DNA from: Dehalococcoidia bacterium
GTDB lineage: Bacteria; Chloroflexota; Dehalococcoidia; Bin125
NCBI GenBank assembly: GCA_007571275.1
Contig: RKRS01000234.1
Location: 1-37,197, forward strand
Reading direction: 5' to 3'
DNA length: 37,197 nt
Within the stretch, counting starts at the first letter, position 1. Every line of letters begins with the position of its first letter. Shown here one piece after another: positions 903 to 35,934 of the stretch. The position numbers and the translations under genes are program-made. The notes below the pieces were generated by a model, which was given only the letters and a program-made list of their open reading frames with translations, was not told where the DNA came from and did no database searches.

Positions 903-2005
903 CAGCCGACAAATCTGATTCCTTCAGGCGCTTCGGACAGTTCGTTGCCCGGACCGCGCAAGACGAGACGTTCGGCTGTCACGTCGCCCGGACCAGCGCC
1001 GCTCAATGACCGTAGCGCCAACCACTGTCCGTTCTCATGCCAGGCTGCGGGTAGGGTGAATCTCTCGTCAGCGTCAGACCAGCTACCGATCTCGAGCGTC
1101 CCGTCAGTGCGCCAGACTGGCGAGGCGCTCTTCACGTACGATCTGTGCGCTGTTGCGGCGGCCTGATCGTCTGCCAACCATCGCTTCGAGACCCAGGGCT
1201 CGCTGGTGTTGGCGGTCGGTACGACCGAGACGTTCAGGCTGAGGCCGCGTTGCTCGGTGAATGCGAGTTGATTGCCGTCCGGCGACAGGGTCCAGTCACG
1301 GGTCATCTCTGCCGAGACTCGCTGCTGATTCAACAATGTCAGGCCGCCACCGTCCAGCTGGAGCTGTGCGACGAATGTGCCGCCGGAACCGAGCAGCGCG
1401 AGCCACAGCATGTCGCCGCGCATCGCAATCGAGTGTGCGCTGCGAACGCCGGGAGGCAGCCAAGCGCCGATCTCCCGACCGCTTTCGGTCTCGATCACTG
1501 CAATCGCGCGGTCGCGGCGAACGACCACCCGCTGACCGTCGTCCGACCACACGACTCCACCTCGTAGATCGAGACCGCCGGCAACCTGCCGCGCGCCCTG
1601 CGCGTCGATCAGCAGGAGCGCTGCGTGCTTGGCCGGATCCCAGCCGGCTGGTGGGATGGTCAGCGCGGCGATCGTTCGGGTATTGAGGTTGACCGCGGCT
1701 GCAATGTCCCAGCCGTTGGCGTGAGGAATGTCGCTTACTTTGATGCGCTTGCCGTCGAGATCGTCGGCGGCTATCAGCCAGAGCGTGGTGTAGGTTCCGT
1801 GATACTCGGACGCGACGAAATGCGCCGCCGACTGTTCATTGTCAGCTCGGAACAGTGAACCGTGACCGAACTCGATCTTGGTATCGGCGCGCGGTACGAG
1901 AAAGCCCAGCAGGGTACCGATGAGCAGGAGCAGCGCGAGCGTCAGCCACACGAACCACTGTCGCCGACCGCGCGGCTTGAATTTCGAGGTATCCACTCTC
2001 AACAT
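890..2005 (-). CDS. Membrane-anchored hypothetical protein, probable beta-propeller (TolB/WD40-like) ectodomain
   Basis: 371-aa ORF with an N-terminal basic stretch and a TM helix (WFVWLTLALLLLIGTLLGFLV). The remainder is repetitive beta-strand-rich sequence with repeated W/D/G patterns. Its 3' end overlaps the next gene's start by 13 nt. The fold call is only pattern-based. Confidence 0.4.
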   Translation of the reverse strand: MLRVDTSKFKPRGRRQWFVWLTLALLLLIGTLLGFLVPRADTKIEFGHGSLFRADNEQSAAHFVASEYHGTYTTLWLIAADDLDGKRIKVSDIPHANGWDIAAAVNLNTRTIAALTIPPAGWDPAKHAALLLIDAQGARQVAGGLDLRGGVVWSDDGQRVVVRRDRAIAVIETESGREIGAWLPPGVRSAHSIAMRGDMLWLALLGSGGTFVAQLQLDGGGLTLLNQQRVSAEMTRDWTLSPDGNQLAFTEQRGLSLNVSVVPTANTSEPWVSKRWLADDQAAATAHRSYVKSASPVWRTDGTLEIGSWSDADERFTLPAAWHENGQWLALRSLSGAGPGDVTAERLVLRGPGNELSEAPEGIRFVGWWAA

Positions 2006-2127
2006 CGGCTCGTCGGCCCCGCCAAGGCCCGCGCTCCGACTCTACCACGAACTCTCAGGCCGCCGGCGCTGTGACGATCACGCTGCGATACTGTGAGCGT
2101 CAACCAGGGCGTGGACAGGAGGTGCGC

Positions 2128-3156
2128 GTGGCGCGCATTGCAATCATTGGCTTGGGGTACATCGGCGGCTCGATCGGGCTCGGATTGCGTGCGGCGAAGC
2201 TGCGCGACACTGAGGTCGTCGGGTTTGACGACTGGCGCGCCGCGCGCAGTGCCGCCAACAAACAGAACGTCGTCGACAACGTTGTCGGGAGTCCCCGAGA
2301 AGCTGTCGATGGGGCCGGACTGGTCATTCTCGCGACGCCGCCGGCGGCGACGTCGGAATTGCTCGAAGAGATCGCCCCACACTTGGGGCGCGGCGCGGCC
2401 GTGACTGACACCGCCGCGTCCAAAAGCAAGATTGAAGGCTGGGCCGACCAGCACCTGCCCCGCGGCGTGTCCTTCGTCGGAGGGCATCCGATGGCTGGTG
2501 ACGCCTCCGCATTCGGGATCGACAACGCCAGCGCCGACCTGTTTCGGGGCAAGCGCTGGTTTGTCAGTCCGTCGCCTTCGGCCTCAGACAACGCCGTGAA
2601 ATCCGTCCTGGGCATGGTGCGCGAACTGGGCGCGACGCCACACTTCCTCAACGCTGTTGAGCATGACTACGTCATGGCTGGCGTTTCGCACTTGCCCCTG
2701 ATCGTTTCCTCGGCGCTTTTCACGATGCTGCGCGGATCAGACAGCTGGCCCGACTTTGGTCGCGCCGCTGGCGAGACGTTCCGCTCGATGACCGCGTTCA
2801 ACTCGGGCGACCCCAGCATGACGACCGAGATCGCGGTGACCAACAAGGAACAGGTCCAGCACTGGATCGATCGGTTCGTGCTGGAACTGAATCGTGTTCG
2901 CAATCTGTTGGACGAGGAGGAAGAGCAGGTCTTTCTCGAGTACTCATCGGCGCAGATCAATCATGCGAAGTTCCTCGGCGGGGATGATCTCGATCCTGAC
3001 GCCGGAGCAACGCCCGATATCCCCGACGCGACATCCCAGATGGCGGCGCTGCTGGTCAGCCCGCGCCTCTACGACAAGGTGCGAGAAATGACCAGGCGCA
3101 GTGAGGAGAAAGAAAAGCAGCGCGAGGCGCGAGGTCGCCGTTGGGGACGCGGATAA
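2128..3156 (+). CDS. tyrA: Prephenate dehydrogenase
   Basis: Rossmann motif IAIIGLGYIGGSIG and the GGHPMAG signature. The likely true start is GTG 2128, preceded by AGGAGG at 2117-2122. The track ORF starts at 2071. Confidence 0.85.
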   Translation: MARIAIIGLGYIGGSIGLGLRAAKLRDTEVVGFDDWRAARSAANKQNVVDNVVGSPREAVDGAGLVILATPPAATSELLEEIAPHLGRGAAVTDTAASKSKIEGWADQHLPRGVSFVGGHPMAGDASAFGIDNASADLFRGKRWFVSPSPSASDNAVKSVLGMVRELGATPHFLNAVEHDYVMAGVSHLPLIVSSALFTMLRGSDSWPDFGRAAGETFRSMTAFNSGDPSMTTEIAVTNKEQVQHWIDRFVLELNRVRNLLDEEEEQVFLEYSSAQINHAKFLGGDDLDPDAGATPDIPDATSQMAALLVSPRLYDKVREMTRRSEEKEKQREARGRRWGRG

Positions 3157-3160
3157 TTCG

Positions 3161-4465
3161 ATGGTCGACAGCATCATGGTCGAACCCAGCGGTCCGTTGC
3201 GCGGCGTGCTGAAGGCGCCGGGCGACAAATCGATCTCGCATCGCGCTCTGATCTGCAACGCGCTCGCTCGGGGCGAGGCGCAGATCAGCGGATTGCTCGA
3301 CAGCGCTGACTGCCGTTCGACCATGTGCTGTTTGCGCCAGTGGGGCGTCGAGTTCGAGGAGAGCGGTGACCGCGTCGTAGTCCGAAGCCCGGGACAGAGC
3401 CAATTTCAACCGCCCAACGGAGTGCTCGATTGTGGCAACAGCGGCACCTCGATCCGGCTGCTCAGCGGAGTCGCGGCGGGCCTGCCCTTCCGTAACCAAT
3501 TCGATGGGGACGCATCGCTACGTAAGCGACCGATGCGTCGGGTGTTGGATCCTCTCTCGCGTATGGGGGCAAGAGTCAGCGACGCGGATACCGCGCCGTT
3601 CTGGGTGGATGGCTCCGCAGGAGCGCTGTCGGGATTTGATGGTGAGATTGCGGTCGCCAGCGCGCAGGTCAAGAGCGCCATCGTCTTTGCTGCGTTGCGA
3701 GCCGAGCAACCGAGCAGGATCGTTGAGCCGGGACCCTCACGTGATCACACAGAGCGAATGTTGATCGCAATGGGCGCGGATATCGAGGTTGGCGACGCGA
3801 CGATTCTGGTCCGTCCCGGCGCGGAGCTGGAACCACAGGATGTCGAGGTGCCCGGCGATGTGAGCGCCGCGGCGTTCTGGATGATTGCTGCCGCAATGAC
3901 TCCCGGCTCGGAGGTCGTGTTACCGAACGTGGGGGTGAATCCGCGGCGGACTGGTGTGATTGAGGTGCTACGAAGTATGGGGGCAACGATCGACACGACG
4001 AATCCTCGTGCAGTCTCGGGCGAGCCGGTCGCCGATGTCGTTGTTCATGGATCGCAATTGCACGGGACGATGATCAATGGCGACATGATCGTTCGTGCGA
4101 TTGATGAAATTCCCGCATTAGCGGTCGCCGCCGCTGTTTCGCAGGGCGTGACCGAGATTCGCGACGCCGCCGAATTGCGAGTCAAAGAGTCGGACCGGAT
4201 CGCGACGACGGCAGAGCTGTTGCGGGCGATGGGCGTCACGGTCAGTGAGCAGGACGACGGGATGCGGATCGTCGGTGGTGATCTGCGTGGCGGCACGGTT
4301 GACTCCCATGGCGACCATCGACTGGCGATGGCCGCGGCGGTCGCTGCCTTGGCTGCGGACCCGGAATCCGGCCCAACAATGATCCAGCACGCTGCCGCCG
4401 TCGACATTTCCTATCCCACCTTCTGGCGCGATCTGGATGCATTGCGACATGTCCCAGCTCTCTGA
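3161..4465 (+). CDS. aroA: 3-phosphoshikimate 1-carboxyvinyltransferase (EPSP synthase)
   Basis: LKAPGDKSISHRALI N-terminal signature, full-length similarity pattern, about 434 aa. ATG 3161 lies 5 nt after the tyrA stop. The track ORF start at 3101 overlaps tyrA. Confidence 0.9.
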   Translation: MVDSIMVEPSGPLRGVLKAPGDKSISHRALICNALARGEAQISGLLDSADCRSTMCCLRQWGVEFEESGDRVVVRSPGQSQFQPPNGVLDCGNSGTSIRLLSGVAAGLPFRNQFDGDASLRKRPMRRVLDPLSRMGARVSDADTAPFWVDGSAGALSGFDGEIAVASAQVKSAIVFAALRAEQPSRIVEPGPSRDHTERMLIAMGADIEVGDATILVRPGAELEPQDVEVPGDVSAAAFWMIAAAMTPGSEVVLPNVGVNPRRTGVIEVLRSMGATIDTTNPRAVSGEPVADVVVHGSQLHGTMINGDMIVRAIDEIPALAVAAAVSQGVTEIRDAAELRVKESDRIATTAELLRAMGVTVSEQDDGMRIVGGDLRGGTVDSHGDHRLAMAAAVAALAADPESGPTMIQHAAAVDISYPTFWRDLDALRHVPAL

Positions 4466-5069
4466 CAGCGCGCCAATGGCGGTGGTCATTTCCGGGCCGT
4501 CAGGCGCGGGCAAGGACACGGTCATCCGCGCGGCGTTGAAACTCGATGCTTCCCTGGCGACCGTGGCGACCGTCAAAACGCGTCCACCGCGACCTGGCGA
4601 GATCGACGGTGTGCATCAGGTCTTCCTGAGCGAGGAGGAGTTCGACCAATGGTTGGCGGATGACAAGCTGCTGGAACATGCTGAGGTGTACGGGCATCGC
4701 AGTGGAGTGCCTCGTGACGCTGTTGCAGCGCTGTTGGCCGCAGGCCGAACGGTGCTCATCCGCACCGATGTGCAAGGCGCTCGTACGTTGAAGCAACGGC
4801 TGGATGAGCCGCTACTGATATTCATCACCGCGGCCAGCGCGGAGGCGTTGGAACGCAGGATGCGTGACCGCGCCGGAGACTCCGAGCGCGAGATGGCGCA
4901 CCGGTTGGCGGTGGCCGAGGCCGAGATGGCGGAAGCGGAGTGGTTTCATGTGATCATCACCAACAGCGACGGCGAACTACAGCGGGCTGCGAGTGAGTTG
5001 GTCCAGGCCATTCAGGCGGCGCGGCAACGACGAACTGCATGTAGCGCATCTGTGTTGCCCGAGCGTTGA
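4449..5069 (+). CDS. gmk: Guanylate kinase
   Basis: P-loop ISGPSGAGKDT, TRPPRPGEIDGV, EHAEVYGH..G.PR and DVQGA motifs. The start is ambiguous (ATG 4437, 4449 or 4476). The first two overlap the aroA stop at 4463-4465. Confidence 0.8.
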   Translation: MSQLSDSAPMAVVISGPSGAGKDTVIRAALKLDASLATVATVKTRPPRPGEIDGVHQVFLSEEEFDQWLADDKLLEHAEVYGHRSGVPRDAVAALLAAGRTVLIRTDVQGARTLKQRLDEPLLIFITAASAEALERRMRDRAGDSEREMAHRLAVAEAEMAEAEWFHVIITNSDGELQRAASELVQAIQAARQRRTACSASVLPER

Positions 5070-5093
5070 CAACGCTGGTATCTCCCCTAGCAT
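5066..5093 (+). promoter_or_regulatory. Putative sigma70-type promoter of the trp operon (TTGACA, 16 nt spacer, TAGCAT), with the palindrome AGCGTTgacAACGCT (5062-5076) over the -35
   Basis: Exact TTGACA at 5066-5071, a 16-nt spacer, then the TANNNT hexamer TAGCAT at 5088-5093. It sits about 190 nt upstream of the trpE ATG, in the only sizeable gap (215 nt) of the operon. Confidence 0.4.
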
Positions 5094-5284
5094 TCGTATG
5101 AGAACGGGAGTGGGCAATGCCTGCGATGGCGCCGCGAAGCAACGTGATCACGCTGACGCGTCCGTCCGCCCACTGCCACACATCGGGCGGGCAAGGGGTC
5201 TGGCGAGGCGCACACTGAGTCGCCACGCCTCGAGGTGGATGAATCGATGTTTCCTCCACCCCTGATCCCAAGGAGCCCGTTCCC

Positions 5285-6789
<1,505 letters not shown>

Positions 6790-6790
<1 letters not shown>

Positions 6791-8055
6791 TGCCGGAGTC
6801 GCTGATCATTGGCTACGGCGTCGTCCTGGATGACGACGGCCGCGTGCTGTTGTTGCGGAGACGGGCGCATGAATCGCTCTGGCCAGACGCGTGGTGGCTG
6901 CCGGGCGAGGTCACCCCGCTCGAAGAGGAGCCGGATGACACGGTCCCGCGCATATTCGAGCGCCTGCTGCGTCAACGGATCCGCGCGGACTACGCCTGCA
7001 CTGTCTACGGTGAGGAGCCATCGAGCGGTCGACACACGGTGCACAATGCCTATGTGGTGACCGTCGCAGCAGCGCTCGATGGAGCGCCGACCGACGAGGC
7101 GAATCCATTTGACGCGATGGAGTGGTGGGACGTGCCCGCGGCGATCGCGGAACTACCACCGGCGCAGGCTGAGCTGTTGACCACAGTCATCCAGCAGCTG
7201 GAGTCGGGTTGGGACTTTGCGACCGACTCCACCCTCGACGATCTGTTCGGTGAGGATGACGCGCCTCCGTCGCCCGCATTACCGCAGCGAACCCACGCCG
7301 AGCGTCGCATCGCAGGCGACGCTATTCTCTCGGAGCTCACCGGTCAAGAGCGCTTCGCCGACGTCATCGAAACCCGCATGGGCCCGTTTGGCTCATACCT
7401 CGTCGATCACATCTGGGGTGATATCTGGCAGGACGGGCTGCTCTCGCGCCGCGATCGCAGCCTCGCTGCCATGGCGGCCGCTGGCGCCCTGATGCAGATC
7501 GACGGCTTCGCATTCAATGCTGCCATTGGCGAGCGCAATGGACTGACCTGCGAGGAGATCGTCGAAGTCTGTGTGCAATTGAGCGTCGAATGCGGATTTC
7601 CGCCCGCCAATCTCGCGTTGACCCGCGTGCTGTCCGATTGGGCCAAAGCAGGAAGTCCATGTGAACCGATTCCCGCGATCGGTAAGGATGACACGCAGCG
7701 ACGGCAAGACGCTGAAAAGGTTTCGCAAGCGCTCACGGGCCGCCACATGAGCGCGCAGACCATCGCCGATGATGCTCAGCGACAACTCGGTTCGCTCGGA
7801 CGGCTGACGGTCGACTGGTCCTGGGGTGACGTCTGGAGCCGCGACGCCCTGCCTCGCAGAGATCGAGCACTGGCAACGCTGGCGATGCATGTTGCAATCG
7901 GACGAGAGCGAGAGCTTGAGTCTGACTTGCAGACCGCTTACCGATTGGGCTGCTCCTGGGACGAGCTGGACGGCGTCATCGCGATCGTCTCGGCCTTCTG
8001 TGGATTACCGCGGGCCTCGGATGCTGCGAGGATTCTGCAGCGACTTCGTGGTTGA
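6790..8055 (+). CDS. Fusion protein: N-terminal Nudix-like domain (degenerate Nudix box) plus two carboxymuconolactone-decarboxylase (CMD/AhpD-fold) repeats
   Basis: ATG 6790 shares one nucleotide with the trpE TGA (TGATG). The N-terminus reads GVVLDDDGRVLLLRR...PGEVTPLEEEPDDTVPRIFERLL. This matches G-x5-E, but the REUxEE glutamates are not conserved. Two CMD repeats follow, each with W-G-D-[IV]-W...[SP]RRDR[SA]L and a C-G-[FL]-P motif. Confidence 0.75.
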
Positions 8056-8118
8056 TGCCGCCTTCGTAGAATGCGCGCGAACAGACGGCCGCAAACACCT
8101 AAGAAACGAGGAACTGAC

Positions 8119-8914
8119 ATGGCGACTCACTCGGAACGACGCAACGCGGGTAGTGAGTTGTTGGCGGAGATGACCGGTCAGCCGCTCGGCTTCGCTTCGG
8201 CCGCCGAGCAGCGCACCGGCGCGTTCGGGAGCTACGTCGTCGATTACATCTTTGGCCAGGTATGGCAGGGCGCCGAGTTGTCGCGCCGTGACCGCACCAT
8301 CGTCGCGTTGTCGATGCTGGGCGCGCTCGAGCGTTTGCAAGCGGTCCAGTTCCATGCCAGTTTCGGGCCGGCCAACGGTGTTTCACGCGAAGAGATGGTG
8401 GAGATCGCGCTGCAGATCGCCGGGTACTCCGGCTTCCCCGCGGGCAACGAGATGGTCAACGTATTGATCACCATGTGGAGCGAGGCTGACGGCACGCCAT
8501 ACCGGATTCCGCCAGCCGCATACAAGGACGACGATCAGCGCCATCGCGATGCCGTCGACGTGATGCGCACGCTCAATGGGCAGGAAGAGGCGGCGGACCC
8601 CGCCGAAGCGTTGGCCGGGATGGAGCGGATCGGGCCGGTCGGCAAACTCGCGTTTGAGTTTGCCTTCGGTGATCTCTGGTCGCGGACGCAGCTTTCGCGC
8701 CGTGACCGATCGCTGGTCGTGGTCTCGATCCTGGTCGCGCTGACCAAGCCCGATGAGCTGCAGTTCCACATTCCCGGGGCGCTTAACCATGGCGTCACTG
8801 TGGAAGAACTCGAGGGAGTCATGGCGACCGCCGCGCCGTACTGCGGATTTCCGCGCGCGGTCGAGGGCTTCCGAACGCTACGCCGCATTCTGCGCGAACG
8901 GGAGGCTGCCAACG

Positions 8915-8925
<11 letters not shown>
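8119..8925 (+). CDS. Double CMD-domain (carboxymuconolactone decarboxylase family, AhpD-like fold) protein, paralogue of the C-terminal two-thirds of the preceding gene
   Basis: ATG 8119 is preceded by GAGGA. The two repeats read FGQVWQGAELSRRDRTIVALS...GYSGFPAG and FGDLWSRTQLSRRDRSLVVVS...YCGFPRA. The 3' end overlaps the trpG start by 11 nt. Confidence 0.75.
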
Positions 8926-9515
<590 letters not shown>

Positions 9516-9523
<8 letters not shown>

Positions 9524-10583
9524 CGCTGATGTCGGCGATTTGGGACAGGCTCTGGCTGCGGTGATTGACGTGCGTCGCGGCCTCACTGACCGTGAAGCGT
9601 CGGTCGCGATGGATGCACTGATGTCGGGTGAGGCGGATGAGATCCAGGCCGCAGCCCTGCTGGCCGGTCTGCGAATGAAGGGCGAGTCAGTCGACGAAGT
9701 GGTCGGCCTGGCCCGTGCCATGCGTGAGCATGCGCTGCATGTCGATCTCGCCGATCTACCGCGACTGGCCGACACCGCCGGCACTGGTGGCTCGGGCAAG
9801 CACACGTTCAACTCATCGACGGCTGCCGGATTCGTGCTCGCTGGCTGCGGCGTGCCAGTGGCTAAGCACGGCAATCGCGCGATGTCTTCGAGTGTCGGCA
9901 GCGCCGACGTGCTGGAAGCGCTTGGCGGCCAGATCGCGCTCGGCCCCGAGCAGGCAGCGAAGCTGATCCGTGAAGTGGGTTTCGGATTCCTGTTTGCGCA
10001 ATCGTTTCACCCTGCGATGCGATTTGTCGCGCCGATTCGGCGACGGATTGGTGTGCGAACCGTGTTCAACATCCTCGGTCCGCTGACCAATCCCGCGCAT
10101 GCGACGCATCAATTGATCGGCGTCGCCCGACCCGAGTTGGGCCCGCTGATGGCGTCGGCGCTGGGCCGACTCGGTGTTCGGCGAGGTCTCGTCGTGCACG
10201 GACACGAGGGTCTTGATGAAGTGTCACCGAGCGGTGAGACGTCCTGCTGGCAGATCGACGGCGACGAGTTGACCGAATTCACGGTGTCGCCGCAGGACTT
10301 CCAGATTCGTCCGGTGCCGCTCACCGCTGTGCGAGGTGGAGAGACCGCCGAGGCGTCCGCGAGCATGATGCGCGAAGTGTTGGGCGGCAAGACATCGGCG
10401 CTGACAGGATTCGTGACGCTGAATGCGGCTGCCGGTTTGTTGGCTGCTGAAGAAGTGCCCACGTTCGCCGAAGGCGTAAGTCGCGCGGCGGAATGTATTG
10501 ACGATCAGCGCGCGCTGCGCAAGCTGGAACTGTTCGTCCAATGCTCGCAATCGATCTCCACCGAATCGCTGGGTTCGACATAA
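9516..10583 (+). CDS. trpD: Anthranilate phosphoribosyltransferase
   Basis: DTAGTGGSGKHTFN(S)ST, KHGNRA, FNILGPLTNPA motifs. ATG 9516 overlaps the trpG stop. Confidence 0.9.
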
Positions 10584-11368
10584 TGCCATCAGTGCTGGAA
10601 CGTATCGTCGCCGACACTCGCGCCTCGGTCGCTGAGCGTCAGCATAGGATGCCGCTCGAAGCGTTGAGTCAGCTCGCCGCTCAGCGAACTGCACGCAACG
10701 ATTTCGTTGCGGCGCTGCATCAGCCGGGCGTTGGGCTGATTGCCGAGATCAAGCGCGGCTCTCCATCCAAAGGACTCTTCGCGCCCGACCTGTCGCCGGC
10801 GAACCTCGCCCGGACCTACCGCAGCATCGGCGCGATTGCCGTGTCCGTGCTCACCTCAGCGGCGTTCTTTGCCACCGACGATGATCTGCGCCAGACGGCT
10901 GAAGCGCTCGCGGATAGCGCGCTGCCGCTACTGCGTAAGGAGTTTCACGTTGACGCGTATCAGGTGGTGGAAGCGGCGGCGCTGGGCGCCGACGCCTATC
11001 TGCTGATCGCCAAGACACTCAGCGCTGCCGAGCTGTCGGAGCTGTCACAGGTTGGAACAGCGGTTGGCTTGACCGCGTTCGTCGAAGTGACCGATGAACG
11101 CGAAGTGTCGATGGCGCTCGAGGCCGGCGCGGCGGCGATTGGTATCAACAACCGAAATCTGCATACATTCGAGGAAGACCTGGGCACCACCGAACGTCTG
11201 CGTAACCAGATTCCGTCCTCAGTCCCGGTCGTGGCGGCCAGCGGCGTGCGGACTCGGGAGGATATGCAGCGGATGGAAGCATGTGGCGTCAACGCGGTGT
11301 TGATCGGCGAAGCGCTGTCCTCAGCTGCTGACCCGCGCGGCAAGGCGCGAGAGTTGTTGGGACGATGA
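10583..11368 (+). CDS. trpC: Indole-3-glycerol phosphate synthase
   Basis: IAEIKRGSPSKG, LRKEF, GINNRNL motifs. The ATG overlaps the trpD TAA (TAATG). Confidence 0.9.
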   Translation: MPSVLERIVADTRASVAERQHRMPLEALSQLAAQRTARNDFVAALHQPGVGLIAEIKRGSPSKGLFAPDLSPANLARTYRSIGAIAVSVLTSAAFFATDDDLRQTAEALADSALPLLRKEFHVDAYQVVEAAALGADAYLLIAKTLSAAELSELSQVGTAVGLTAFVEVTDEREVSMALEAGAAAIGINNRNLHTFEEDLGTTERLRNQIPSSVPVVAASGVRTREDMQRMEACGVNAVLIGEALSSAADPRGKARELLGR

Positions 11369-12048
11369 CGTTCGTCAAGATCTGTTCCGTTCGAGCGGTT
11401 GAACACGCGGAGTGGGCGCGCGAGGCCGGCGCGGATGCGATTGGCATGATCTTTGCTGACGCGCCACGGCGGATTGAGATGAACGTGGCCAGGGCCGTCA
11501 GACGCGCGCTGGGCCCGCGTGTCGAGATTTTGGAATCAAACATCGAGACTATCGAGCGTGAGCGCCGCGCCGCCGACCAACCGCTGCTGGTCGGGGTGTT
11601 TGCCAGGCAGTCGATCGATGAGATTGAGCGCGTGCTCGATCAGGTTGATCTCGACCTGGTGCAGTTGAGCGGCGGTGAGCACCCGGCCCTGGCTGGTCGT
11701 GTGCGGCGCATCGTGGTACGCGCCGTGCATGTATCTGAGGGCATGAACGCTCGCTCCGTTCTGCGCGAAATCGAACGCGCGCCGAACACCATCGCGCATC
11801 TGGACGCGAAGTCGAAACAGGGCGGTGGAACCGGACAGCGGATCGATTGGTCCCTGGCAGCCGAGGTTGCCGCCAAACGACCGCTTGTGCTGGCCGGTGG
11901 ACTGAATCCCGAAAACGTCGGCGAGGCGGTCCGATTCGTTCGTCCGTGGGCCGTTGATGTGTCGTCCGGGGTTGAGACCAAGGGCGAGAAGGATCGAGAC
12001 AAAATCCGTGCGTTTATCGCGGCGGCGAAAGGCGGCGATGCGTCGTGA
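11365..12048 (+). CDS. trpF: Phosphoribosylanthranilate isomerase
   Basis: [39 protein letters not shown] and [13 protein letters not shown] overlap with trpC. Confidence 0.85.
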
Positions 12049-13226
12049 CGAAAGAAAGCGGGGCCTTTGGGCCGTTCGGCGGTCAGTTTGCGCCCGAGAC
12101 GTTGATGCCAGCGCTGTTTGAGCTGGAAGCAGCCTGGTCAGAGGCTCAGGCTGATGCTGAGTTCCTCGCAGAGCTTGACAGTCTGTTGCGTGACTATGTT
12201 GGTCGTGAGACGCCGCTCACTCATGCTGCCCGCCTCTCGGAGCAGCTTGGCGGCGCACAGATTTGGCTCAAACGCGAAGACCTGGCCCACACTGGGGCGC
12301 ACAAGATCAACAACGCGCTCGGTCAGGTACTGCTGGCCAAGCGCATGGGCAAGCCGCGGATCATCGCCGAGACCGGCGCTGGTCAGCACGGCGTCGCCAC
12401 GGCGACGGCCTGTGCGCGCTTCGGCCTCGAGTGCGTCGTCTACATGGGCGCCGAGGATGTGCGACGGCAGGCGCTGAACGTCTTTCGCATGGGACTGCTG
12501 GGCGCTGAGGTCGTGCCTGTCGACTCCGGCGCGCGGACGCTCAAGGACGCGATCAATGAGGCGATCCGCGACTGGGTCACCAACGTGCGCACGACGCATT
12601 ACCTGATCGGCAGCGCGATCGGTCCGCATCCCTACCCCGTGATCGTGCGCGAATTGCAGTCCTGCATCGGACGCGAGGCCAGGCAGCAGCTACAGGAGAA
12701 GATCGGCAGGTTGCCTGATGTCGCCATCGCCTGCGTTGGCGGCGGTAGCAACGCGATCGGTCTGTTTCATCCACTCATCGATGATCCTGTCCGCCTGATC
12801 GGTGTTGAGGCTGCAGGCGAAGGCTTGGCGGCGCGTCACGCGGCGACCCTCTCCGCAGGATCGCCCGGAGTGCTACACGGCACACGCACCTACGTCCTTC
12901 AGGATGAACACGGCCAAATCACGGAAGCGCACTCGATCTCCGCCGGTCTCGATTACCCCGGCGTTGGCCCCGAGCACGCCTGGTTGATGTTGACTGAGCG
13001 AGCCGAGTATGTCTCGGTGACGGACGACGAAGCGCTCGAGGGGTTGAAACTCCTCTCGGAAACCGAGGGCATTATTCCTGCCCTGGAAACCGCGCACGCG
13101 ATCGCCTACGCAGCAACGTTGGCTCCGACCATGAGTTCGGATGAGACGATCCTGATCGGACTGTCAGGTCGTGGCGACAAGGACGTCGAGATCGTTCGCG
13201 ACGCATTGACGCTTCGCTCATCGTGA
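12045..13226 (+). CDS. trpB: Tryptophan synthase beta chain
   Basis: [16 protein letters not shown] (PLP Lys), [20 protein letters not shown]. The GTG start overlaps the trpF stop (GTGA). Confidence 0.95.
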
Positions 13227-13972
13227 CAACCGGTGACCCGCAAGTAACGCAGCCTGTCCCCCAGCCCGAGGACCGCGGGATGGCCGGCTTCCGACTGATC
13301 GGCTGGGGATTGCTGTGCGCGCTGGGTTGGTTCGTGGTGTTGTTGGTCACTGGGTGGATCGTCGCAACCATCGATGGAGAGACCCCAGCGACCAGCGAAG
13401 CGGGAATGCTCGTTGAGGTGATCGGACAGGGAGTCGGAGGCATTGTCGGTTGGCTGGTGCTACCGAAGCTGGTTCTGCGGCGGCTCGGACAGTCTGCGCT
13501 CATCTCATGGCGACGTCCACAGCGCGCTGATTTCGCTTGGGCCGCCGGTGGACTGCTGGCGATCTATGCAGTGCTGTATGTCTACACGGCAATCGTCAGC
13601 GCCGCGGGTCTGGAGTCGCTGGAGCCGCAATCGACGATTGACGAAAGCCGACTGTACGTCCATACGTCAGTCATGGTTGGGTTGGGAATCCTGGTCATCG
13701 TCTGCGCGCCGATCTATGAGGAGGCCTTCGCGCGCGGCCTCCTGCTCGGAGGGTTACGACCCCACTGGGGTATGATTCCCGCGTTTCTCGTATCGTCATC
13801 AGTGTTTTCCGCGTTGCATGCCGATTTGGGCAGCCTGATTCCCTTTACCCTCGCCGGGGTGATACTGGGGGTCGTGTACTTGCGCAGCGGATCGCTGACC
13901 GCAGCCTCAATGACGCATGTCAGCTTCAACGTAATCGGCTTCTCCGCGACGCTGGTACAGCAACTTGGTTGA
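13223..13972 (+). CDS. CPBP family (CAAX/Abi-type) intramembrane glutamic metalloprotease
   Basis: 249 aa with multiple TM helices. The three CPBP motifs occur in order: EEAFAR (EExxxR), FSALHA (FxxxH), HVSFN (HxxxN). GTG 13223 overlaps the trpB stop (GTGA), and the ORF ends 21 nt before trpA. Confidence 0.75.
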
Positions 13973-13993
13973 CGCAATGTTGGATGGCACGGG

Positions 13994-14869
13994 ATGACTG
14001 AACTGGGCAGGCGCTACCGGGAGGCTTTTGATGCATCAGAGGCTCAGGGAGACGGCCCGTTGGTCTTTCCCTTCCTGGCTGCCGGATTTCCGTCGCCGGA
14101 GGAGACGCCGGACCTGGTTCGCGCCGCGCTCCGAGGCGGCGCTGGCGGACTGGAAATCGGCGTCCCGTTCTCAGACCCACTTGCCGATGGCCCCGCCCAT
14201 CAGCGGGCGTACACGGTCGCTCTCGCTGCGGGAGCGGCCCTGGAGACCGCGCTCGAGGCGGTCCGCTGCGCTCGTGAGGCGGCGCCCGATGCGCCGATCA
14301 CGCTGATGGGCTATCTCAATCCGTTTCTGTCCTTCGGAGCGTCGATCCGTAGCGCTATCGGTACACCCGGTGACGCAGTCGGTCAGCCGTTGGATGCGCT
14401 GGCGCAACGCATGGCTGAGGCAGGCGCTGACGGTGTAATCGTCGTCGACCTGCCGGTGGATGAGTCGGACGCGGCGCGTGAGGTCTTCGCCAGGCACGGA
14501 ATCTCGATGATCTATCTGCTGGCGCCTACTTCGACCGAGGAGCGGATTGCCGCTGTGGCGGAGCGAGCCTCAGGTTTCATCTACCTCGTCTCACTCACCG
14601 GAGTGACCGGCGCTCGCGAGCAGGTCGCCGCCGATTTTGAGGCGTTTGTCGGTCGGGTTCGCGCCTTGACTGATGCGCCGTTGGCAGTTGGCTTCGGCAT
14701 CAGCCGTCGCGAACATGTCGAAGAGGTCGGGAGATTGGTTCCTGCTGCTATTATCGGCTCAGCGCTGACCACAGCGATTGCGTCAGCGCCGAGCGATGGT
14801 CGCGTTGCGGCTGTCGAGCGATATCTCGAGGTGGTCACTGGCCGCCGGAGTGAAGAGACCAGCGAATGA
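13994..14869 (+). CDS. trpA: Tryptophan synthase alpha chain
   Basis: FLAAGFPS, LEIGVPFSDPLADGP and GFGIS motifs. 291 aa. Confidence 0.9.
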   Translation: MTELGRRYREAFDASEAQGDGPLVFPFLAAGFPSPEETPDLVRAALRGGAGGLEIGVPFSDPLADGPAHQRAYTVALAAGAALETALEAVRCAREAAPDAPITLMGYLNPFLSFGASIRSAIGTPGDAVGQPLDALAQRMAEAGADGVIVVDLPVDESDAAREVFARHGISMIYLLAPTSTEERIAAVAERASGFIYLVSLTGVTGAREQVAADFEAFVGRVRALTDAPLAVGFGISRREHVEEVGRLVPAAIIGSALTTAIASAPSDGRVAAVERYLEVVTGRRSEETSE

Positions 14870-15049
14870 ACAACCGCACCCAATCGGGACAGCCACTGTT
14901 CATCAGCTGCGTCTATATCTCCGCGGCCGGCGTCTTTGAGGCCGGTCGCTAGATCGCGTGCCGACGAGTCACGTTGGCGCGTTGATCGCACTGCTGCATC
15001 ACCCACCTGCCCCCACTCACTACCGCACGGAACCACTGAGCACCTGACG

Positions 15050-15454
15050 ATGCCGAACCATGAGCCTGAGGCTGTCTGGCGCTTGCGAGGCATTCGCGGC
15101 GCGACGACCGTCGCAACAAACTCACGCACCGACATCCTCGACGCTACCGAAGAGCTGTTGGGCGAGATGATCGTTCGCAACCGGATCGACGGCGGCGAAG
15201 TCGCCTCGGTCTGGTTCACGACCACGCCCGACCTCAATGCCGAGTTCCCGGCGGTTGTCGCGCGTCGCACGTTCAACTGGACGGACGCCGCGCTCATGTG
15301 CGGTCACGAGATGCAGGTACCCGGTTCGCTGTCCTCCTGTCTGAGGATCCTGCTACACGTCAATACGCCGCTGCGTCAGGATGAAGTCGAGCACGTCTAC
15401 CTGCGCGGGGCGCGAGTGTTGCGACCGGACTTGGCAGCGAATACCGGTGATTAA
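15050..15454 (+). CDS. aroH: Chorismate mutase, AroH class
   Basis: RGIRGATTV...[11 protein letters not shown]...VYL..A.VLRPDL is near-colinear with the Bacillus subtilis AroH pattern. ATG 15050 gives a protein of about 134 aa. The track start at 14936 is an upstream extension. Confidence 0.85.
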
Positions 15455-15527
15455 CGTTCAGTGGCGGCATGGCTGCCAAGATCCAGAAAGAACACGGTCA
15501 CAAACCGAGGAGCGAGAAGGTAACAAG

Positions 15528-16577
15528 ATGCTGATTGTCATGAAAATGGGCGCGACCGACGAGCAGGTTCGCGGCGTGCTCGCCAGGCTGAAGGAAGCCA
15601 ACCTCGAGGGTCATCTGTCTCCGGGCAAGGAGCGAGTGGTGATTGGCGCCGTCGGCGTCATCGGCGATCCGGACATTCGCTCCCAGATGGGACGCATGAG
15701 CGGTGTCGAGGAAGTGATCGCGATCTCACGTCCCTACAAGCTGACGGGTCGTGAGTTCCAGAAGAACGACACGGTGATTGAGGTCGGCGGCGTCAGGATC
15801 GGCGACGGCTCGATGGTCGTGATGGCCGGTCCCTGCTCGATCGAGAATGAAGAGCACATGGTCACGACCGCCAGGGCTGTGGCCGCCTCGGGCGCGCAGG
15901 TTCTGCGCGGCGGGGCCTTCAAGCCTCGCACGTCGCCGTACGCCTTCCGCGGGCTCGGGGAAGAAGGCCTGCAACACCTGGCCGCGGCTCGTGACGAGAC
16001 CGGCCTCCCGGTGATTACTGAGGTGATGGAAGCGCGCGACGTGGAACTGGTCGCGCGTTACGCCGACATCCTGCAAATCGGCACGCGCAACATGCAGAAC
16101 TTCATGTTGCTCGATGAGGTTGGACTGGCGCGTAAGCCAGTCATGCTCAAGCGCGGTCTCTCGGCCACAATCGACGAGTGGCTGCTGGCTGCCGAGTACA
16201 TCATGGCCAAGGGTAACCGCGACGTCATCCTCTGCGAGCGTGGTATCCGCACGTTTGAAACGTCGACCCGCAACACGCTGGATCTGTCCGCGATCCCGGT
16301 GGTCAAGCGACTGAGCCACCTGCCAATCGTCAGTGACCCCGCGCATGGCACCGGTCACTGGTATCTGGTCGAGCCGATGGCTCGCGCCTCCATGGCGGTC
16401 GGCGCCGATGGCCTCATGGTCGAAGTACATCCCAACCCTGACCACGCGCTGTCTGACGGTCCGCAGTCGCTGACGTTCGAGAACTTCGACTCGCTGATGC
16501 GTTCGCTCGATCGGGTCGGCGAGGCGGTCGGTCGTCCATTGGCGGCGCAGCCACAGCTGGCCGCGGTCGGTGACTAG
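15528..16577 (+). CDS. 3-deoxy-7-phosphoheptulonate (DAHP) synthase, class I-beta, with N-terminal ferredoxin-like/ACT regulatory domain
   Basis: The N-terminal ~70 aa ([23 protein letters not shown]...) resembles the Thermotoga-type regulatory domain. The catalytic core shows [42 protein letters not shown] 15528 has an upstream GAGGAG. Confidence 0.9.
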
Positions 16578-16628
16578 GACAACAGCGTCGCGCGCAAATG
16601 TTCACGCCGATGAAAGCTGCTCGCCCCG

Positions 16629-17096
16629 CTACACCTCACTGGTCAGAGCGCGGCGGGCAGCCTCATCGCGTTGTTCGACGGCCTGCGAGCGTTCGCCCTG
16701 TTCGAGCTTGACTTCCAGCTGAGTGACCGCGGACGTGACCGAGGTCTGCATCGTGCGTAGCTGATCGTTGAGCCGCCGTAGCATCTCCAACGAGTATCGG
16801 TCTGCCTCCAGCGCCTGCGAGACCGCTTCGGCGGTCGCCTGTCCGCGGACCGCCGCGGCTTCCTGATTGGCGCGTGTGATGGTTTCCGTTGCTGACTGGT
16901 GAGCCTGGTCGACAATGCTCTGCGCCCGCGTCTCGGCTGCCTGCACCAGTTCGTGTACGGAAATCTGTTGCTCAGCGTCCTGTCTGGCCTGCTCGGCAAG
17001 GATGGCGGCCTCTTCCTGCGTATGACGAAGTAAACGCTCGCGTTCCTCGAGCAAACGTTGGGCGTGGTCGGCTGATGCTGGCGCAGCCATTCGCAA
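16629..17096 (-). CDS. Coiled-coil protein (Gln/Ala/Glu-rich). The coding frame probably extends N-terminally to about 17216 (see findings)
   Basis: 155-aa ORF from TTG 17096 with heptad-like Q/E/A/R composition. The same frame stays open to 17249 and encodes a plausible conserved N-terminal segment. Confidence 0.6.
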   Translation of the reverse strand: MRMAAPASADHAQRLLEERERLLRHTQEEAAILAEQARQDAEQQISVHELVQAAETRAQSIVDQAHQSATETITRANQEAAAVRGQATAEAVSQALEADRYSLEMLRRLNDQLRTMQTSVTSAVTQLEVKLEQGERSQAVEQRDEAARRALTSEV

Positions 17097-29873: not shown

Positions 29874-30024
29874 CAGTCGCCTCCTGCATGTGTGCTCAAC
29901 TCAGACGTTGGTCAGATCGTGCGCCGCGCGCCGAGAAGTCGATCAAAGTCTAAAGTGACGACGTTATCCTGTGACTGAGGAAGCGCCGCCCGAGCGCTGT
30001 CTCGCCAACATGTGGAGAACCGAC

Positions 30025-31350
30025 ATGGTGATTGCCGAAGTCCCCGCACTGACAGTCGACACGGTCGATATCACTGACTCCGATCGCTATCGCGATGTTG
30101 GCTACCCATGGGCCGAGTGGGATTTGCTGCGCCGGGAGGCGCCGGTCTATTGGTATCAGCGGCCCGGCTTCGAGCCCTTCTGGGCGATCACCAAGCACGC
30201 CGATATCCGCTTCATCTCGTCGCATCCGGATCTGTTCTCCAATACGCAGATGTTGCGTCTGAACACGGCCAAGAAGCTCGGTTCGGCTCAGCGCCAGCGC
30301 ACGGCCGGCACAAACCGCACCGGTGGTCACCCGGACGATCCGCCTGACTTCATCTACATGGACCCGCCGGAGCATCGTCAGCATCGCGGTCTGGTGGCGC
30401 GACACTTCACGCCGCGGATGATGAAGATGTTGGAGGACCACTTCGCCGAGATGGCGGAGAACTACGTCTCCGACTTCGCCGACAAAGTCGTCGCCGATTT
30501 CGCGGAGCGTGGATCAACGTCAGCGGTCGATGTGGTGCACGAGCTCTCGGCCAAACTGCCAGTCGCCGCGATCTGTTCGATGGGTGGCGTGCCGGAGGAA
30601 GACTGGGACCAAATTTTCAAATGGACAGAGGTACTGGTCGGCGCGGACGATCCGGAGTATCGACTGCCGGGAGAGACGCCAGGCCAGGCGACGCAGCGCA
30701 TTGCGGTTGAGTGGTTCCACTACAACAACAACCTGATCGAAGAGCGCAAACGCAACCTTGGCGATGACCTGCTCAGCGACCTGCTCCGCGCCGAAGTCGA
30801 TGGCCGCCAGCTGACGCCCGCCGAGATTCACGGCTACTTCGTCCTGTTGCTGGCAGCCGGTAACGAAACGACCCGCAACTCGATCTCCGGCGGGGTTAAG
30901 GCGCTGATCGACCACCCGGAGCAGATGCAGATGCTGGTCGACGACGCCTCGCTGGTACCCTCGGCGGTCGAGGAGATTCTCCGCTGGACATCCATCGTGA
31001 TCCAGTTCCAGCGCACCGCCGTCGAGGATGTCGAGCTGCGCGGTCAAACGATCCGCAAGGGCGAGTCGGTCGTACTCTGGTATCCCTCAGCCAACCGCGA
31101 TGAAGATGTCTTCGCAGATCCCTACAAGTTTGACATTCTGCGGCATCCGAACGATCACTTCGCCTTCGGCGGCTACGGCGAGCACTTCTGTCTGGGCGCC
31201 AATCTCGCCCGTTGGGAGATGCGCTCGATCTTCCACGCCCTCCGACCGATTCTGCCCCAGCTGGAGCTCACGGCAGACCCGGAGCACGTGATCGGGTTCC
31301 TCCACGTCGGCGGGATCAAGCGTCAGATGGTCCGCTACCGCCCTCGGTGA
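30025..31350 (+). CDS. Cytochrome P450 (CYP124/125-like), paralogue 1
   Basis: I-helix LLLAAGNETTRNS, ExxR (EEILRW), heme loop FAFGGYGEHFCLGANLAR. ATG 30025 was chosen by colinearity with paralogue 2 (MVIAEVPALTVDT vs MVTAERPTLTLDT) and has GGAG upstream. The track start is 29971. Confidence 0.9.
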   Translation: MVIAEVPALTVDTVDITDSDRYRDVGYPWAEWDLLRREAPVYWYQRPGFEPFWAITKHADIRFISSHPDLFSNTQMLRLNTAKKLGSAQRQRTAGTNRTGGHPDDPPDFIYMDPPEHRQHRGLVARHFTPRMMKMLEDHFAEMAENYVSDFADKVVADFAERGSTSAVDVVHELSAKLPVAAICSMGGVPEEDWDQIFKWTEVLVGADDPEYRLPGETPGQATQRIAVEWFHYNNNLIEERKRNLGDDLLSDLLRAEVDGRQLTPAEIHGYFVLLLAAGNETTRNSISGGVKALIDHPEQMQMLVDDASLVPSAVEEILRWTSIVIQFQRTAVEDVELRGQTIRKGESVVLWYPSANRDEDVFADPYKFDILRHPNDHFAFGGYGEHFCLGANLARWEMRSIFHALRPILPQLELTADPEHVIGFLHVGGIKRQMVRYRPR

Positions 31351-31379
31351 GGCGGTCGCAGAAACAGAGGCGACAAGCA

Positions 31380-31952
31380 ATGAGCAGGGTCCCTCGACTC
31401 AAGCAGTTCGAATTTCATCGCGAGAAGCTCGCTGAGCTGATCCTGTACATCTCGGAGCAGTGTGCCGATGATCCTGCGTACGGCGCTGTGAAGCTCAACA
31501 AGATTCTCTACTACGCAGACTTCGACGCTTATCGGCTCTTGGGCGCTCCGATCACCGGTGCGCAGTACCGCAAGCTTTCCGAAGGTCCGGCGCCAAGAGA
31601 TCTGGTCGAAGTCAGGATGGAGCTTGAGGACGCGGGTCGGTTGCGGCTTGAGGAGCGGCAGTGTTTCAATCGGATGCAAAAGCGGCCGGTCGTGGTTGAG
31701 GGTCAAGGGGCGAACGTCGAGCTGTTTTCCCGGGAAGAGTTGAGCGCGGTTCAGGATGTAATCGCGTTCTTTTTCGGCAAGTCAGCCCGCGAGGTTTCCG
31801 ACTACTCGCATCGGGAACCCGGCTGGATTCTGGCTGAGGATCGCGAGGACATCCCTTACGAAACGGCTTGGCTGGACGGTGATCCAATCGATCAGGAGAC
31901 GGAGGAGTCCGCCGTGAGAGTCGGAATGGAATTGCTCAAAGCCCGCAGATAG
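31380..31952 (+). CDS. Panacea-domain (DUF4065, SocA/GepA-like) putative antitoxin
   Basis: 190 aa from ATG 31380. KLNKILYYADFDAYRLLGAPITGAQYRKLSEGPAPRDL matches the DUF4065 core (KLxKLLYxxD...G.P...xYxxxxxGPxP). The later block reads LSAVQDVIAFFFGKSAREVSDYSHREPGW. The track ORF start at 31212 is an out-of-gene extension overlapping the P450. Confidence 0.7.
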   Translation: MSRVPRLKQFEFHREKLAELILYISEQCADDPAYGAVKLNKILYYADFDAYRLLGAPITGAQYRKLSEGPAPRDLVEVRMELEDAGRLRLEERQCFNRMQKRPVVVEGQGANVELFSREELSAVQDVIAFFFGKSAREVSDYSHREPGWILAEDREDIPYETAWLDGDPIDQETEESAVRVGMELLKARR

Positions 31953-35885: not shown

Positions 35886-35934
35886 GGGTTGCCTCCGATG
35901 GTTGTGCTCGGAGGCTAACGGGTGGCGGCGTCTG

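Follow-up and report, generated by a model that had tools for sequence, protein, structure and literature searches.

Few two-subunit enzymes have been studied as thoroughly as anthranilate synthase, and the genes for its two components are normally adjacent or fused. AhpD, of the CMD superfamily, carries two CMD-like halves in a single chain, while non-catalytic Nudix-fold domains occur as the C-terminal domain of MutY, the ligand-binding domain of NrtR and the NUDT9-H domain of TRPM2. According to PMC3141380, the AhpD of Mycobacterium tuberculosis is a trimer, and neither the catalytic residues nor the active site of PcaC have been established; our literature search returned no relevant paper on those residues either. 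The structure 4G9Q, from structural genomics, was deposited as '4-carboxymuconolactone decarboxylase', and we found no functional study of it or of the tandem-CMD family in the literature. Relatives of the 4G9Q type sampled from rhizobial plasmids stand alone or are fused to a cupin, and the neighbourhood read for one of them, H3, is without trp genes. Unexplained genes inserted in trp operons have been reported before, for example between trpB and trpA of some Flavobacterium and Burkholderia species (PMC2395257). As in those cases, the locus described here has non-trp genes lying among trp genes and sharing their orientation, but the insertion is between trpE and trpG, its genes come from the Nudix and CMD families, there is translational coupling on either side, and the content varies between lineages. 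Our search returned no relevant paper on CMD or Nudix genes in trp operons, or on tryptophan synthesis in sponge Dehalococcoidia.

In the window, meaning the whole 37,197-nt stretch of Dehalococcoidia DNA analysed, two genes on the + strand, ORF1 (6790-8055, 421 aa) and ORF2 (8119-8925, 268 aa), form extra coding sequence that separates trpE (5285-6790) from trpG (8915-9523), as a sequence-only reading had proposed. TrpE (anthranilate synthase component I, 501 aa, + strand; Pfam Chorismate_bind 5e-89, Anth_synt_I_N 5e-29) matches the M. tuberculosis TrpE 5CWA over its full length (6e-111) and has no extra segments; its translation contains LLES and NPSPY, which we take to be the Trp-feedback motifs. 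TrpG (glutamine amidotransferase, 202 aa, + strand) has a canonical Pfam domain and is preceded by the Shine-Dalgarno sequence GGGAGG (8900-8905). The two overlaps that the same reading had described are both present: the trpE stop (TGA, 6788-6790) and the ORF1 start (ATG, 6790-6792) share one nucleotide in TGATG, with a Shine-Dalgarno GAGG at 6780-6783, and ORF2 (stop, 8923-8925) ends 11 nt inside trpG (ATG at 8915). A 63-nt spacer (8056-8118) with the Shine-Dalgarno GAGGA at 8108-8112 lies between ORF1 and ORF2; in most relatives this spacer measures 9-126 nt, and in four loci (L006, L007, L046 and L047) the genes overlap by 4 nt. The start of ORF2 is most likely ATG 8119, in agreement with the public protein collection and all homologues, and the in-frame ATG at 8071 is without support.

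Downstream, on the same strand, follow trpD (9516-10583), trpC (10541-11368), trpF (11365-12048), trpB (12045-13226), an Rce1-like/CPBP gene (13223-13972) and trpA (13994-14869). A promoter-like site upstream of trpE (TTGACA-16-TAGCAT, 5066-5093, + strand), recognised by consensus match only, agrees with the consensus at 10 of 12 positions and is the sole such site within 2000-17000. We found no terminator-like site on the + strand within 6790-8925, no match in Rfam and tRNA scans of the window, and no recognisable leader or attenuator upstream of trpE. The overlaps with trpE and trpG imply that ORF1 and ORF2 are co-transcribed and coupled with the Trp genes, as had been suggested, and a single predicted transcript would span trpE-ORF1-ORF2-trpG.

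ORF2 consists of two CMD repeats (8119-8523 and 8524-8922). Pfam PF02627 matches it in two stretches (2e-29, 101.9 bits against a cut-off of 23), and the AlphaFold2 models of ORF2 (pLDDT 95.7) and of ORF1 (pLDDT 89.5) both show the all-helical CMD/AhpD-like fold, with Foldseek probability 1.0 to 4G9Q and to the PcaC-annotated 2AF7. The best match of ORF2 in sequence and in fold is 4G9Q (E 1.8e-21; Foldseek E 3e-10, TM 0.77), which is also the best match of the C-terminal part of ORF1; the two-repeat architecture of about 270 residues is the same, while identity is 23-24%. Aligned end to end with 52 family members, ORF2 keeps all invariant columns, that is, every residue invariant across the 53 tandem-CMD proteins, and also His79 and His217. 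The repeat motif that had been described for all four repeats holds except in repeat 1 of ORF2, which reads FGQVW instead of WGDxW. In the N-repeat of ORF2, WSR has become WQG specifically in this clade, whereas the rest of the family, sister-lineage CMDs included, is conserved there.

Both proteins belong to the same superfamily as AhpD, but the AhpD CxxC/His proton-relay site is missing from all four repeats; neither protein has a CxxC or the His/Glu relay of the AhpD type, and ORF2 has a single Cys. With PcaC (PF02627, TIGR02425, 2AF7) they share the all-helical CMD fold without cofactor motif or CxxC, and the pattern (W/F)G(D/Q)xW ... RRDR(S/T)(L/I) ... H ... GxxxEE ... (Y/F)(C/S)G(F/L)P. 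PcaC, however, has one domain, some 125 residues long, and its gene belongs to pca operons, whereas here there are two repeats per chain in a trp operon and the scores stay below the equivalog level. The best NCBIfam models (PcaC, PcaDC and PcaCD) all fall below their cut-offs, and against the PcaC equivalog TIGR02425 the two repeats summed give 99.2 bits for ORF1 and 122.8 for ORF2, compared with a cut-off of 155.7. PcaC-like rather than AhpD-like, as first proposed, is thus how the pair is best described. No pcaB, pcaD or pcaGH was found among the annotated genes of the window, and no pca genes among the called genes of five related loci (Pfam tables). ORF2 looks like a working PcaC-like enzyme, and its conserved residues suggest that it may be catalytically active.

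The N-terminal part of ORF1 (residues 1-146, 6790-7227, + strand) has a Nudix fold with a dead Nudix box. Pfam PF00293 detects it marginally (2.1e-4, 21.7 bits against a cut-off of 21.1; up to 28.8 bits in homologues with a short form of ORF1), PF14815 (NUDIX_4) matches weakly, and Foldseek assigns it to MutT-type Nudix hydrolases (probability 1.0, TM about 0.7), with MutT, RppH, DR1025 and NrtR among the matches. The Nudix and CMD identities, which had been read from the letters, therefore stand on Pfam models above cut-off, marginally so for NUDIX, and the predicted folds agree. The box, with G39 and D/E40, reads (G)D/E-x5-E46-x7-R54-I-F-E-R-L-L-R-Q62. We aligned the domain to three canonical relatives (P0225, P0227 and P0231); P0225 and P0227 retain R-E-L-R-E, and P0225 the entire Nudix box. 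Since R-I-F-E-R-L-L-R-Q stands in place of the R-E-L-R-E-E-L-G-I of the nearest canonical relatives, all three REUxEE glutamates are lost; E55, E58, E59 and G61 are replaced clade-wide. ORF1 thus departs from the catalytic signature GX5EX7REUXEEXGU with its three metal-binding or catalytic glutamates, and the degeneracy noticed at first sight is borne out. The nearest relatives outside the clade have a canonical box and are fused to a SAM methyltransferase. The likeness to the MutY, NrtR and NUDT9-H domains would be that of a Nudix fold under selection without these glutamates, but ORF1 has no sequence-level membership in those families. The domain appears to be a newly recognised pseudoenzyme that has kept its Nudix fold.

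A disordered linker (residues 147-161, 7228-7272, + strand; pLDDT <50) connects this domain to the CMD part, and the pTM of the model (0.61) leaves the orientation of the domains relative to each other undefined. Two CMD repeats follow on the + strand, WGDIW...SRRDRSL...ECGFP (7273-7674) and WGDVW...PRRDRAL...FCGLP (7675-8052), matched by PF02627 in two stretches (7.6e-25, 87.2 bits against a cut-off of 23). The architecture is that of a tandem CMD, but the family-conserved His is missing in both repeats, replaced by Asn in the first and by Asp in the second. Because the catalytic residues of PcaC are not established, the distinction between an 'active' ORF2 and a 'dead' CMD part of ORF1 is drawn from conservation.

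The 47 species representatives differ in the extent of this CMD part. A full tandem CMD ends ORF1 in 31 of them and is the sister paralogue of ORF2, in keeping with the paralogy claimed earlier; in the other 16 there is only a remnant of about 55 residues, which hhalign relates to the CMD core (probability 95.4%, E 1.7e-8). Every ORF1 among the 47 ends in a CMD-derived module. The short form is not a recent random truncation, since short forms share a conserved tail, which is homologous to the CMD core. The CMD part, present only as this remnant in 16/47 species, appears dispensable, and in L002 a second, independent ORF2 duplicate is fused to a Nudix domain. That such fusions arose more than once speaks for a tie, whether physical or functional, of the Nudix-like domain to the CMD protein. 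The loss of the Nudix glutamates, the absence of the conserved His from both repeats and the reduction of the CMD part all argue for ORF1 as a non-catalytic partner; contrary to the first reading, ORF1 is probably not an enzyme. When ORF2 residues were tested for co-variation with the form of ORF1, long or short, the lowest p was about 1e-3 without correction for multiple tests, and no residue reached significance.

The trpE-ORF1-ORF2-trpG layout occurs in 47/47 species-representative genomes found, each carrying a Dehalococcoidia or Chloroflexota label, and in additional contigs from metagenomes, so that the pair is neither a chance association nor an assembly artefact. The linkage to trp genes is thus conserved and not unique to this assembly, and none of the outcomes named in advance as refuting the first reading came about. 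Recurrence across phyla was not seen: the pair is restricted to one Dehalococcoidia clade, and a metagenome scan with the Nudix-like profile added just two loci of the same type. Isolate names of relatives point to sponges as the habitat of the clade. The trpE/ORF1 overlap is kept in 33/47 species and the ORF2/trpG overlap in 43/47, and both persist despite saturated synonymous sites. ORF1 and ORF2 are under purifying selection as strong as that on the trp enzymes, whose dN/dS spans 0.03-0.21: the ratio is 0.06-0.12 in ORF2, 0.08-0.16 in the Nudix part and 0.06-0.15 in the fused CMD. TrpE, TrpG and TrpB have the same dN as ORF2 (about 0.06). Conserved synteny within a single clade partly reflects shared ancestry.

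In sister lineages the same junction carries other genes. Five loci were sampled, with TrpE 65-78% identical, and these contain a methyltransferase with a CMD, a CMD alone (two loci), a methyltransferase alone, and a fusion of a Nudix-like domain to a P-loop kinase. The three CMDs share only 43-45% identity with ORF2 or among themselves, and that of L061 is closer to broad-family members (61-70%) than to ORF2; divergent tandem CMDs at one junction suggest repeated recruitment or replacement. The difference in cargo and the absence of a CMD gene from two of the five junctions argue that chorismate-to-tryptophan chemistry does not need a CMD step. Since sister lineages carry different genes at this junction, we tentatively prefer, at somewhat less than even confidence, to see ORF1 and ORF2 as lineage-specific accessory cargo in a variable slot, with ORF2 as a working enzyme and ORF1 as its non-catalytic partner, outside the core Trp steps. 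ORF2 would be a tandem-CMD, PcaC-like protein of the cofactor-independent decarboxylase/isomerase type, acting most likely on a small carboxylated molecule that matters while anthranilate synthase is made; a side product, analogue or inhibitor of the chorismate/anthranilate step would be a candidate. ORF1 may bind a ligand or protein through its dead Nudix fold, carried on the flexible linker, with its CMD-derived module tethering it to an ORF2 oligomer. Binding of ORF1 to ORF2, and a connection of the pair to anthranilate synthase beyond co-expression, are what we infer from the locus. The closest solved relatives of the sister-lineage methyltransferase are small-molecule, natural-product methyltransferases, which we count in favour of a small-molecule theme.

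Variable cargo would also fit genes unrelated to tryptophan. The pair might serve general stress response or detoxification, using the expression of a strongly conserved operon and kept by inheritance, and we regard this as somewhat unlikely. Besides the lineage-specific cargo, other junctions hold unrelated genes (trpB and trpA are separated by an Rce1-like gene everywhere, and trpG and trpD by GGACT or unknown genes in L062 and L064), the inserts cited above offer a precedent, and broad-family tandem-CMD genes elsewhere are not trp-linked (3/3). Four broad-family loci, L003, L055, L056 and L060 (rhizobial plasmid), have no shared theme and no trp genes. Such hitch-hiking sits poorly, however, with divergent tandem CMDs at this very junction in the window clade and three sister lineages, with overlaps maintained despite synonymous saturation, and with a constraint on ORF2 equal to that on TrpE and TrpG.

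Alternatively, anthranilate synthase could have both proteins as non-catalytic subunits that regulate or scaffold it, the Nudix pocket sensing a nucleotide, PRPP or an aromatic compound and the CMD ring docking to TrpE/TrpG to tune activity or feedback. The genes do lie exactly between the two subunit genes and are coupled on both sides, ORF1 is under purifying selection yet without the catalytic residues of either domain type, and the change to WQG in ORF2 is specific to the clade. We nevertheless consider this unlikely: TrpE is of canonical length with no extra docking segments and the TrpG domain is canonical, the sister cargo comprises unrelated enzyme families or lacks CMD or Nudix, which would be odd for a subunit, and the family-invariant residues kept by ORF2 suggest that the family activity is retained.

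A bolder proposal, which we hold to be improbable, is that the trpE-trpG junction is a modular accessory locus, where a Nudix-derived adaptor of common origin, fused to a methyltransferase, P-loop kinase or CMD module according to lineage, works with a tandem-CMD enzyme, and where the interchangeable modules dock on, or act beside, anthranilate synthase as a regulator or as an antimetabolite 'guard' that modifies or neutralises small molecules aimed at the chorismate/glutamine site. The N-terminal domain of L065 may be related to the Nudix-like domain through BLASTP to canonical relatives (E 2e-8, in a six-sequence set), while its direct hhalign match to the Nudix-like profile is weak (probability 4.5%). 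If true, an enzyme of amino-acid biosynthesis would here have swappable accessory subunits, a class not described before. Finally, a true 4-carboxymuconolactone decarboxylase, an AhpD-type peroxidase partner or an active Nudix pyrophosphatase (acting on, e.g., PRPP or dihydroneopterin triphosphate) is scarcely credible, because the PcaC-type family models and the annotation of relatives as '4-carboxymuconolactone decarboxylase' or 'NUDIX hydrolase' are contradicted by the sub-cut-off scores, the lack of pca genes and CxxC, and the replaced glutamates.

The conserved pair and the changing content of its position point to an unrecognised accessory function at the first committed step of Trp synthesis, or else to a natural example of operon passenger swapping, in uncultured organisms of one clade. 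The locus also offers a concrete way into the large tandem-CMD family, whose gene contexts showed no consistency.

Some further observations concern the surroundings and composition of the genes. GC content is flat across the region (0.62-0.63), and a recent horizontal transfer was rejected on this ground. A guanylate-kinase gene that was considered as an oddity passes the NCBIfam guanylate-kinase cut-off, and the usual remA-gmk pair is seen in sister lineages. ORF1 is rich in tryptophan, with 13 residues (3.1%) compared with 0-4 (0-1.3%) in each enzyme of the same operon, and one may speculate that its own synthesis serves as a read-out of tryptophan supply.

ORF1 (6790-8055) and ORF2 (8119-8925) lie on the + strand in an aromatic amino-acid supra-operon of uniform orientation, made up of genes for a tyrA-type prephenate dehydrogenase (2071-3156), AroA (3101-4465) and guanylate kinase (4437-5069), then trpE (5285-6790), the gene pair, trpG (8915-9523), trpD (9516-10583), trpC (10541-11368), trpF (11365-12048), trpB (12045-13226), an Rce1-like/CPBP membrane protease gene (13223-13972), trpA (13994-14869), an AroH-type chorismate mutase gene (14936-15454) and a DAHP synthase gene (15381-16577); a promoter-like site lies at 5066-5093. 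When the overlaps, domains and motifs described in the sequence-only reading were re-examined, all of its statements about the sequence held. ORF1 indeed begins at the trpE stop, with one base common to both (TGATG, 6788-6792), and ORF2 ends inside trpG, its stop (8923-8925) reaching 11 nt beyond the trpG ATG at 8915. Every downstream start is preceded by a Shine-Dalgarno sequence of its own within the upstream gene or spacer, GC content stays flat across the insertion (0.62-0.63), and no terminator-like sites were found on the + strand within ORF1 or ORF2. We placed the ORF2 start at ATG 8119, not 8071, because it is the one used in the public protein collection and is common to all homologues. 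The guanylate kinase gene, which passes the NCBIfam guanylate-kinase cut-off and lies between aroA (29-nt overlap) and trpE, is probably ordinary housekeeping, since sister lineages carry remA-gmk in the same place.

Searching with ORF2 gave a tight group at 72-92% identity, followed by a gap to 48% or less. When one genome per GTDB species was scanned, 47 loci emerged, every one labelled as a Dehalococcoidia or Chloroflexota MAG and many with isolate names that look sponge-derived. By tblastn, every one of these carries trpE, the Nudix-like gene, the tandem CMD gene, trpG, trpD, trpC, trpF, trpB, the Rce1-like gene and trpA, and further ENA, Logan and JGI contigs have the identical layout. 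The 1-nt trpE/ORF1 overlap is retained in 33 of the 47 loci and the 11-nt ORF2/trpG overlap in 43. Nei-Gojobori dN/dS values, calculated with synonymous sites near saturation, were 0.06-0.12 for ORF2, 0.08-0.16 for the Nudix part of ORF1, 0.06-0.15 for its fused CMD part and 0.03-0.21 for the trp enzymes, and at the protein level ORF2 changes as slowly as TrpE, TrpG and TrpB (dN about 0.05-0.06). The data show ORF1 and ORF2 to be a real, selected and, judging from sequence, co-expressed module.

The domains proposed earlier were recovered with Pfam, which placed CMD in two stretches in each protein and gave a marginal NUDIX match in ORF1; the CxxC motif of AhpD, reported as missing, was absent from both. 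In the ORF1 structure model (pLDDT 89.5), residues 1-146 adopt a Nudix fold, 147-161 are a disordered linker and what follows is a helical double-CMD body. Foldseek matches of this model are MutT-type Nudix enzymes for the N-terminal domain and the tandem-CMD structure 4G9Q for the remainder, while the ORF2 model (pLDDT 95.7) matched 4G9Q and 2AF7, both annotated as 4-carboxymuconolactone decarboxylases. ORF1 is also the richest in tryptophan among the proteins annotated in the window, with 13 residues (3.1%, where the window averages 1.24%; binomial p 0.003), including an invariant tandem W35-W36; TrpG and TrpD contain a single tryptophan each, and TrpE, TrpC and TrpA lack it altogether. Such a composition might make ORF1 synthesis sensitive to tryptophan supply.

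ORF1 looks like a pseudoenzyme in both of its parts. An exhaustive search of 1.84 billion cluster representatives with the Nudix-like domain profile returned just 16 clusters with E under 1e-10, roughly twelve belonging to this clade. The nearest relatives outside it, P0225, P0227 and P0231, are canonical Nudix domains, fused in the latter two to a class-I SAM methyltransferase. Aligned with them, the window box reads R-I-F-E-R-L-L-R-Q in place of R-E-L-R-E-E-L-G-I, and the degeneracy first noticed in this one sequence extends to the whole clade, the three glutamates and the glycine of REUxEExGU being lost throughout; the rest of the domain is highly conserved. In the CMD repeats, a histidine present in 2AF7, repeat 2 of 4G9Q, both ORF2 repeats and 90% or more of the 53 sequences in a family alignment, which would correspond to His137 of the AhpD proton relay, is replaced by Asn in repeat 1 and Asp in repeat 2 of ORF1. 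Because the active site of PcaC is not determined (PMC3141380), the point rests for the CMD part on conservation only.

ORF1 occurs as a long fusion (387-432 aa) in 31 of the 47 species and as a short form (222-254 aa) in the other 16, the two being interleaved in the Nudix-domain tree. The tail of the short form is conserved among short forms, and a profile comparison identifies it as a homologue of the three-helix CMD-repeat core (probability 95.4%, E 1.7e-8; alignment with ORF2 residues 51-95); the CMD part is dispensable, yet never wholly absent. The Nudix-like domain would appear to need a CMD-type module attached to it, the probable reason being that such a module takes part in the ORF2 oligomer. 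Neighbour-joining places the fused CMD units, on longer branches, as the sister group to ORF2, pointing to an old duplication inside the lineage; the deeper sub-clade has lost the WGD and GFP motifs from the second fused repeat. One locus (L002, 1303-2703) encodes a 466-aa Nudix-like fusion whose CMD part, 72% identical to the window ORF2, nests inside the ORF2 clade and not with the usual fused paralogue; this is a second, independent duplication and fusion.

Beyond the clade, the content of the junction changes. Among TrpE relatives below the clade's 81% identity floor, we examined the genomic context of five. Between trpE and trpG, L061 (TrpE 78%) has a SAM methyltransferase (269 aa) followed by a tandem CMD (279 aa), L062 (75%) and L063 (73%) a tandem CMD only (276 and 283 aa), L064 (70%) a methyltransferase only (262 aa), and L065 (65%) a 326-aa protein containing a P-loop kinase domain (AAA_33/CPT). 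In the latter, the first 140 residues show similarity to the canonical Nudix relatives (35% over 83 residues, E 2e-8 when a small set was compared), but their profile match to the window domain is weak. Of the Nudix-methyltransferase fusions, P0231 is the closest to the window Nudix-like domain; its methyltransferase half shares 74% identity with the L061 methyltransferase and 65% with that of L064. P0396, a fusion in the same 90% cluster, lies on a 289,490-bp contig, and the longest contig with the TrpE P0318 is also 289,490 bp, no more than a hint that this fusion too may sit at the trpE-trpG junction. The sister-lineage CMD proteins are 43-45% identical to ORF2 and to one another, through either fast divergence or repeated acquisition or replacement; that of L061 is nearer to broad-family members (61-70%) than to ORF2. 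No trp linkage was found among the broad-family tandem-CMD members sampled elsewhere.

At the trpG-trpD junction, L062 has a GGACT/AIG2-like gene and an unassigned 168-aa gene (9944-10948), and L064 an unassigned 226-aa gene (9972-10652), so more than one junction of this operon takes cargo. Unlike the trpE-trpG cargo, the Rce1-like gene, between trpB (4-nt overlap) and trpA, is constant, occurring in each of the 47 species and, wherever the locus extends to trpB-trpA (L061 ends before), in the sister lineages too, as far as 65% TrpE identity. A second tblastn match in about half of the listed loci (at least about 20) suggests that it is duplicated there. In L065, the most distant of the sister lineages sampled, a gene for a class-I tRNA synthetase (tRNA-synt_1b, 5979-7004; probably TrpRS) runs 4 nt into the start of trpE, and upstream there is a second PALP (TrpB-like) gene.

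The CMD gene is absent from the junction in two of the five sister lineages and the Nudix-like gene in four, which argues that the module is not a required chorismate-to-tryptophan step. ORF2, the constant partner, retains the invariant residues of the tandem-CMD family; we read it best as a putative active PcaC-like enzyme, with ORF1 as its non-catalytic partner. That the two are passengers unrelated to tryptophan we consider rather unlikely. A regulatory or scaffold role on anthranilate synthase, to be judged by the position of the pair on one side and its replacement in sister lineages on the other, is slightly more doubtful still. The sequence contradicts the classical activities, whether of PcaC, AhpD or a Nudix hydrolase.

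That trp operons can contain inserted genes of no known role is already established (PMC2395257); our literature search found nothing that connects CMD or Nudix genes with these operons. The arrangement is clean, conserved and unusual, at a textbook enzyme; the fusion of apparent Nudix and CMD pseudoenzymes is new, and there is evidence for a swappable cargo slot at trpE-trpG. The arrangement is confined to one uncultured clade. The other cargo offers a lead, though not a result: the closest solved relatives of the methyltransferase are small-molecule methyltransferases, and this, together with the chloramphenicol-phosphotransferase-like kinase, suggests a small-molecule-modifying theme. Among the NCBIfam models are one for fusions of ArsM-type methyltransferase and AhpD/CMD domains (NF041537) and one describing a CMD-family "arsenosugar biosynthesis-associated peroxidase-like protein", a lead that methyltransferase-plus-CMD pairings recur elsewhere; the L064 methyltransferase and the CMD proteins score far below the cut-offs of those models.

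Elsewhere in the window, two cytochrome P450 genes (29971-31350 and 32333-33661) stand on either side of a SocA/Panacea antitoxin-like gene (31212-31952), followed on the opposite strand by a luciferase-like monooxygenase gene (33958-34965) and a metallo-beta-lactamase-fold gene (34965-36428).
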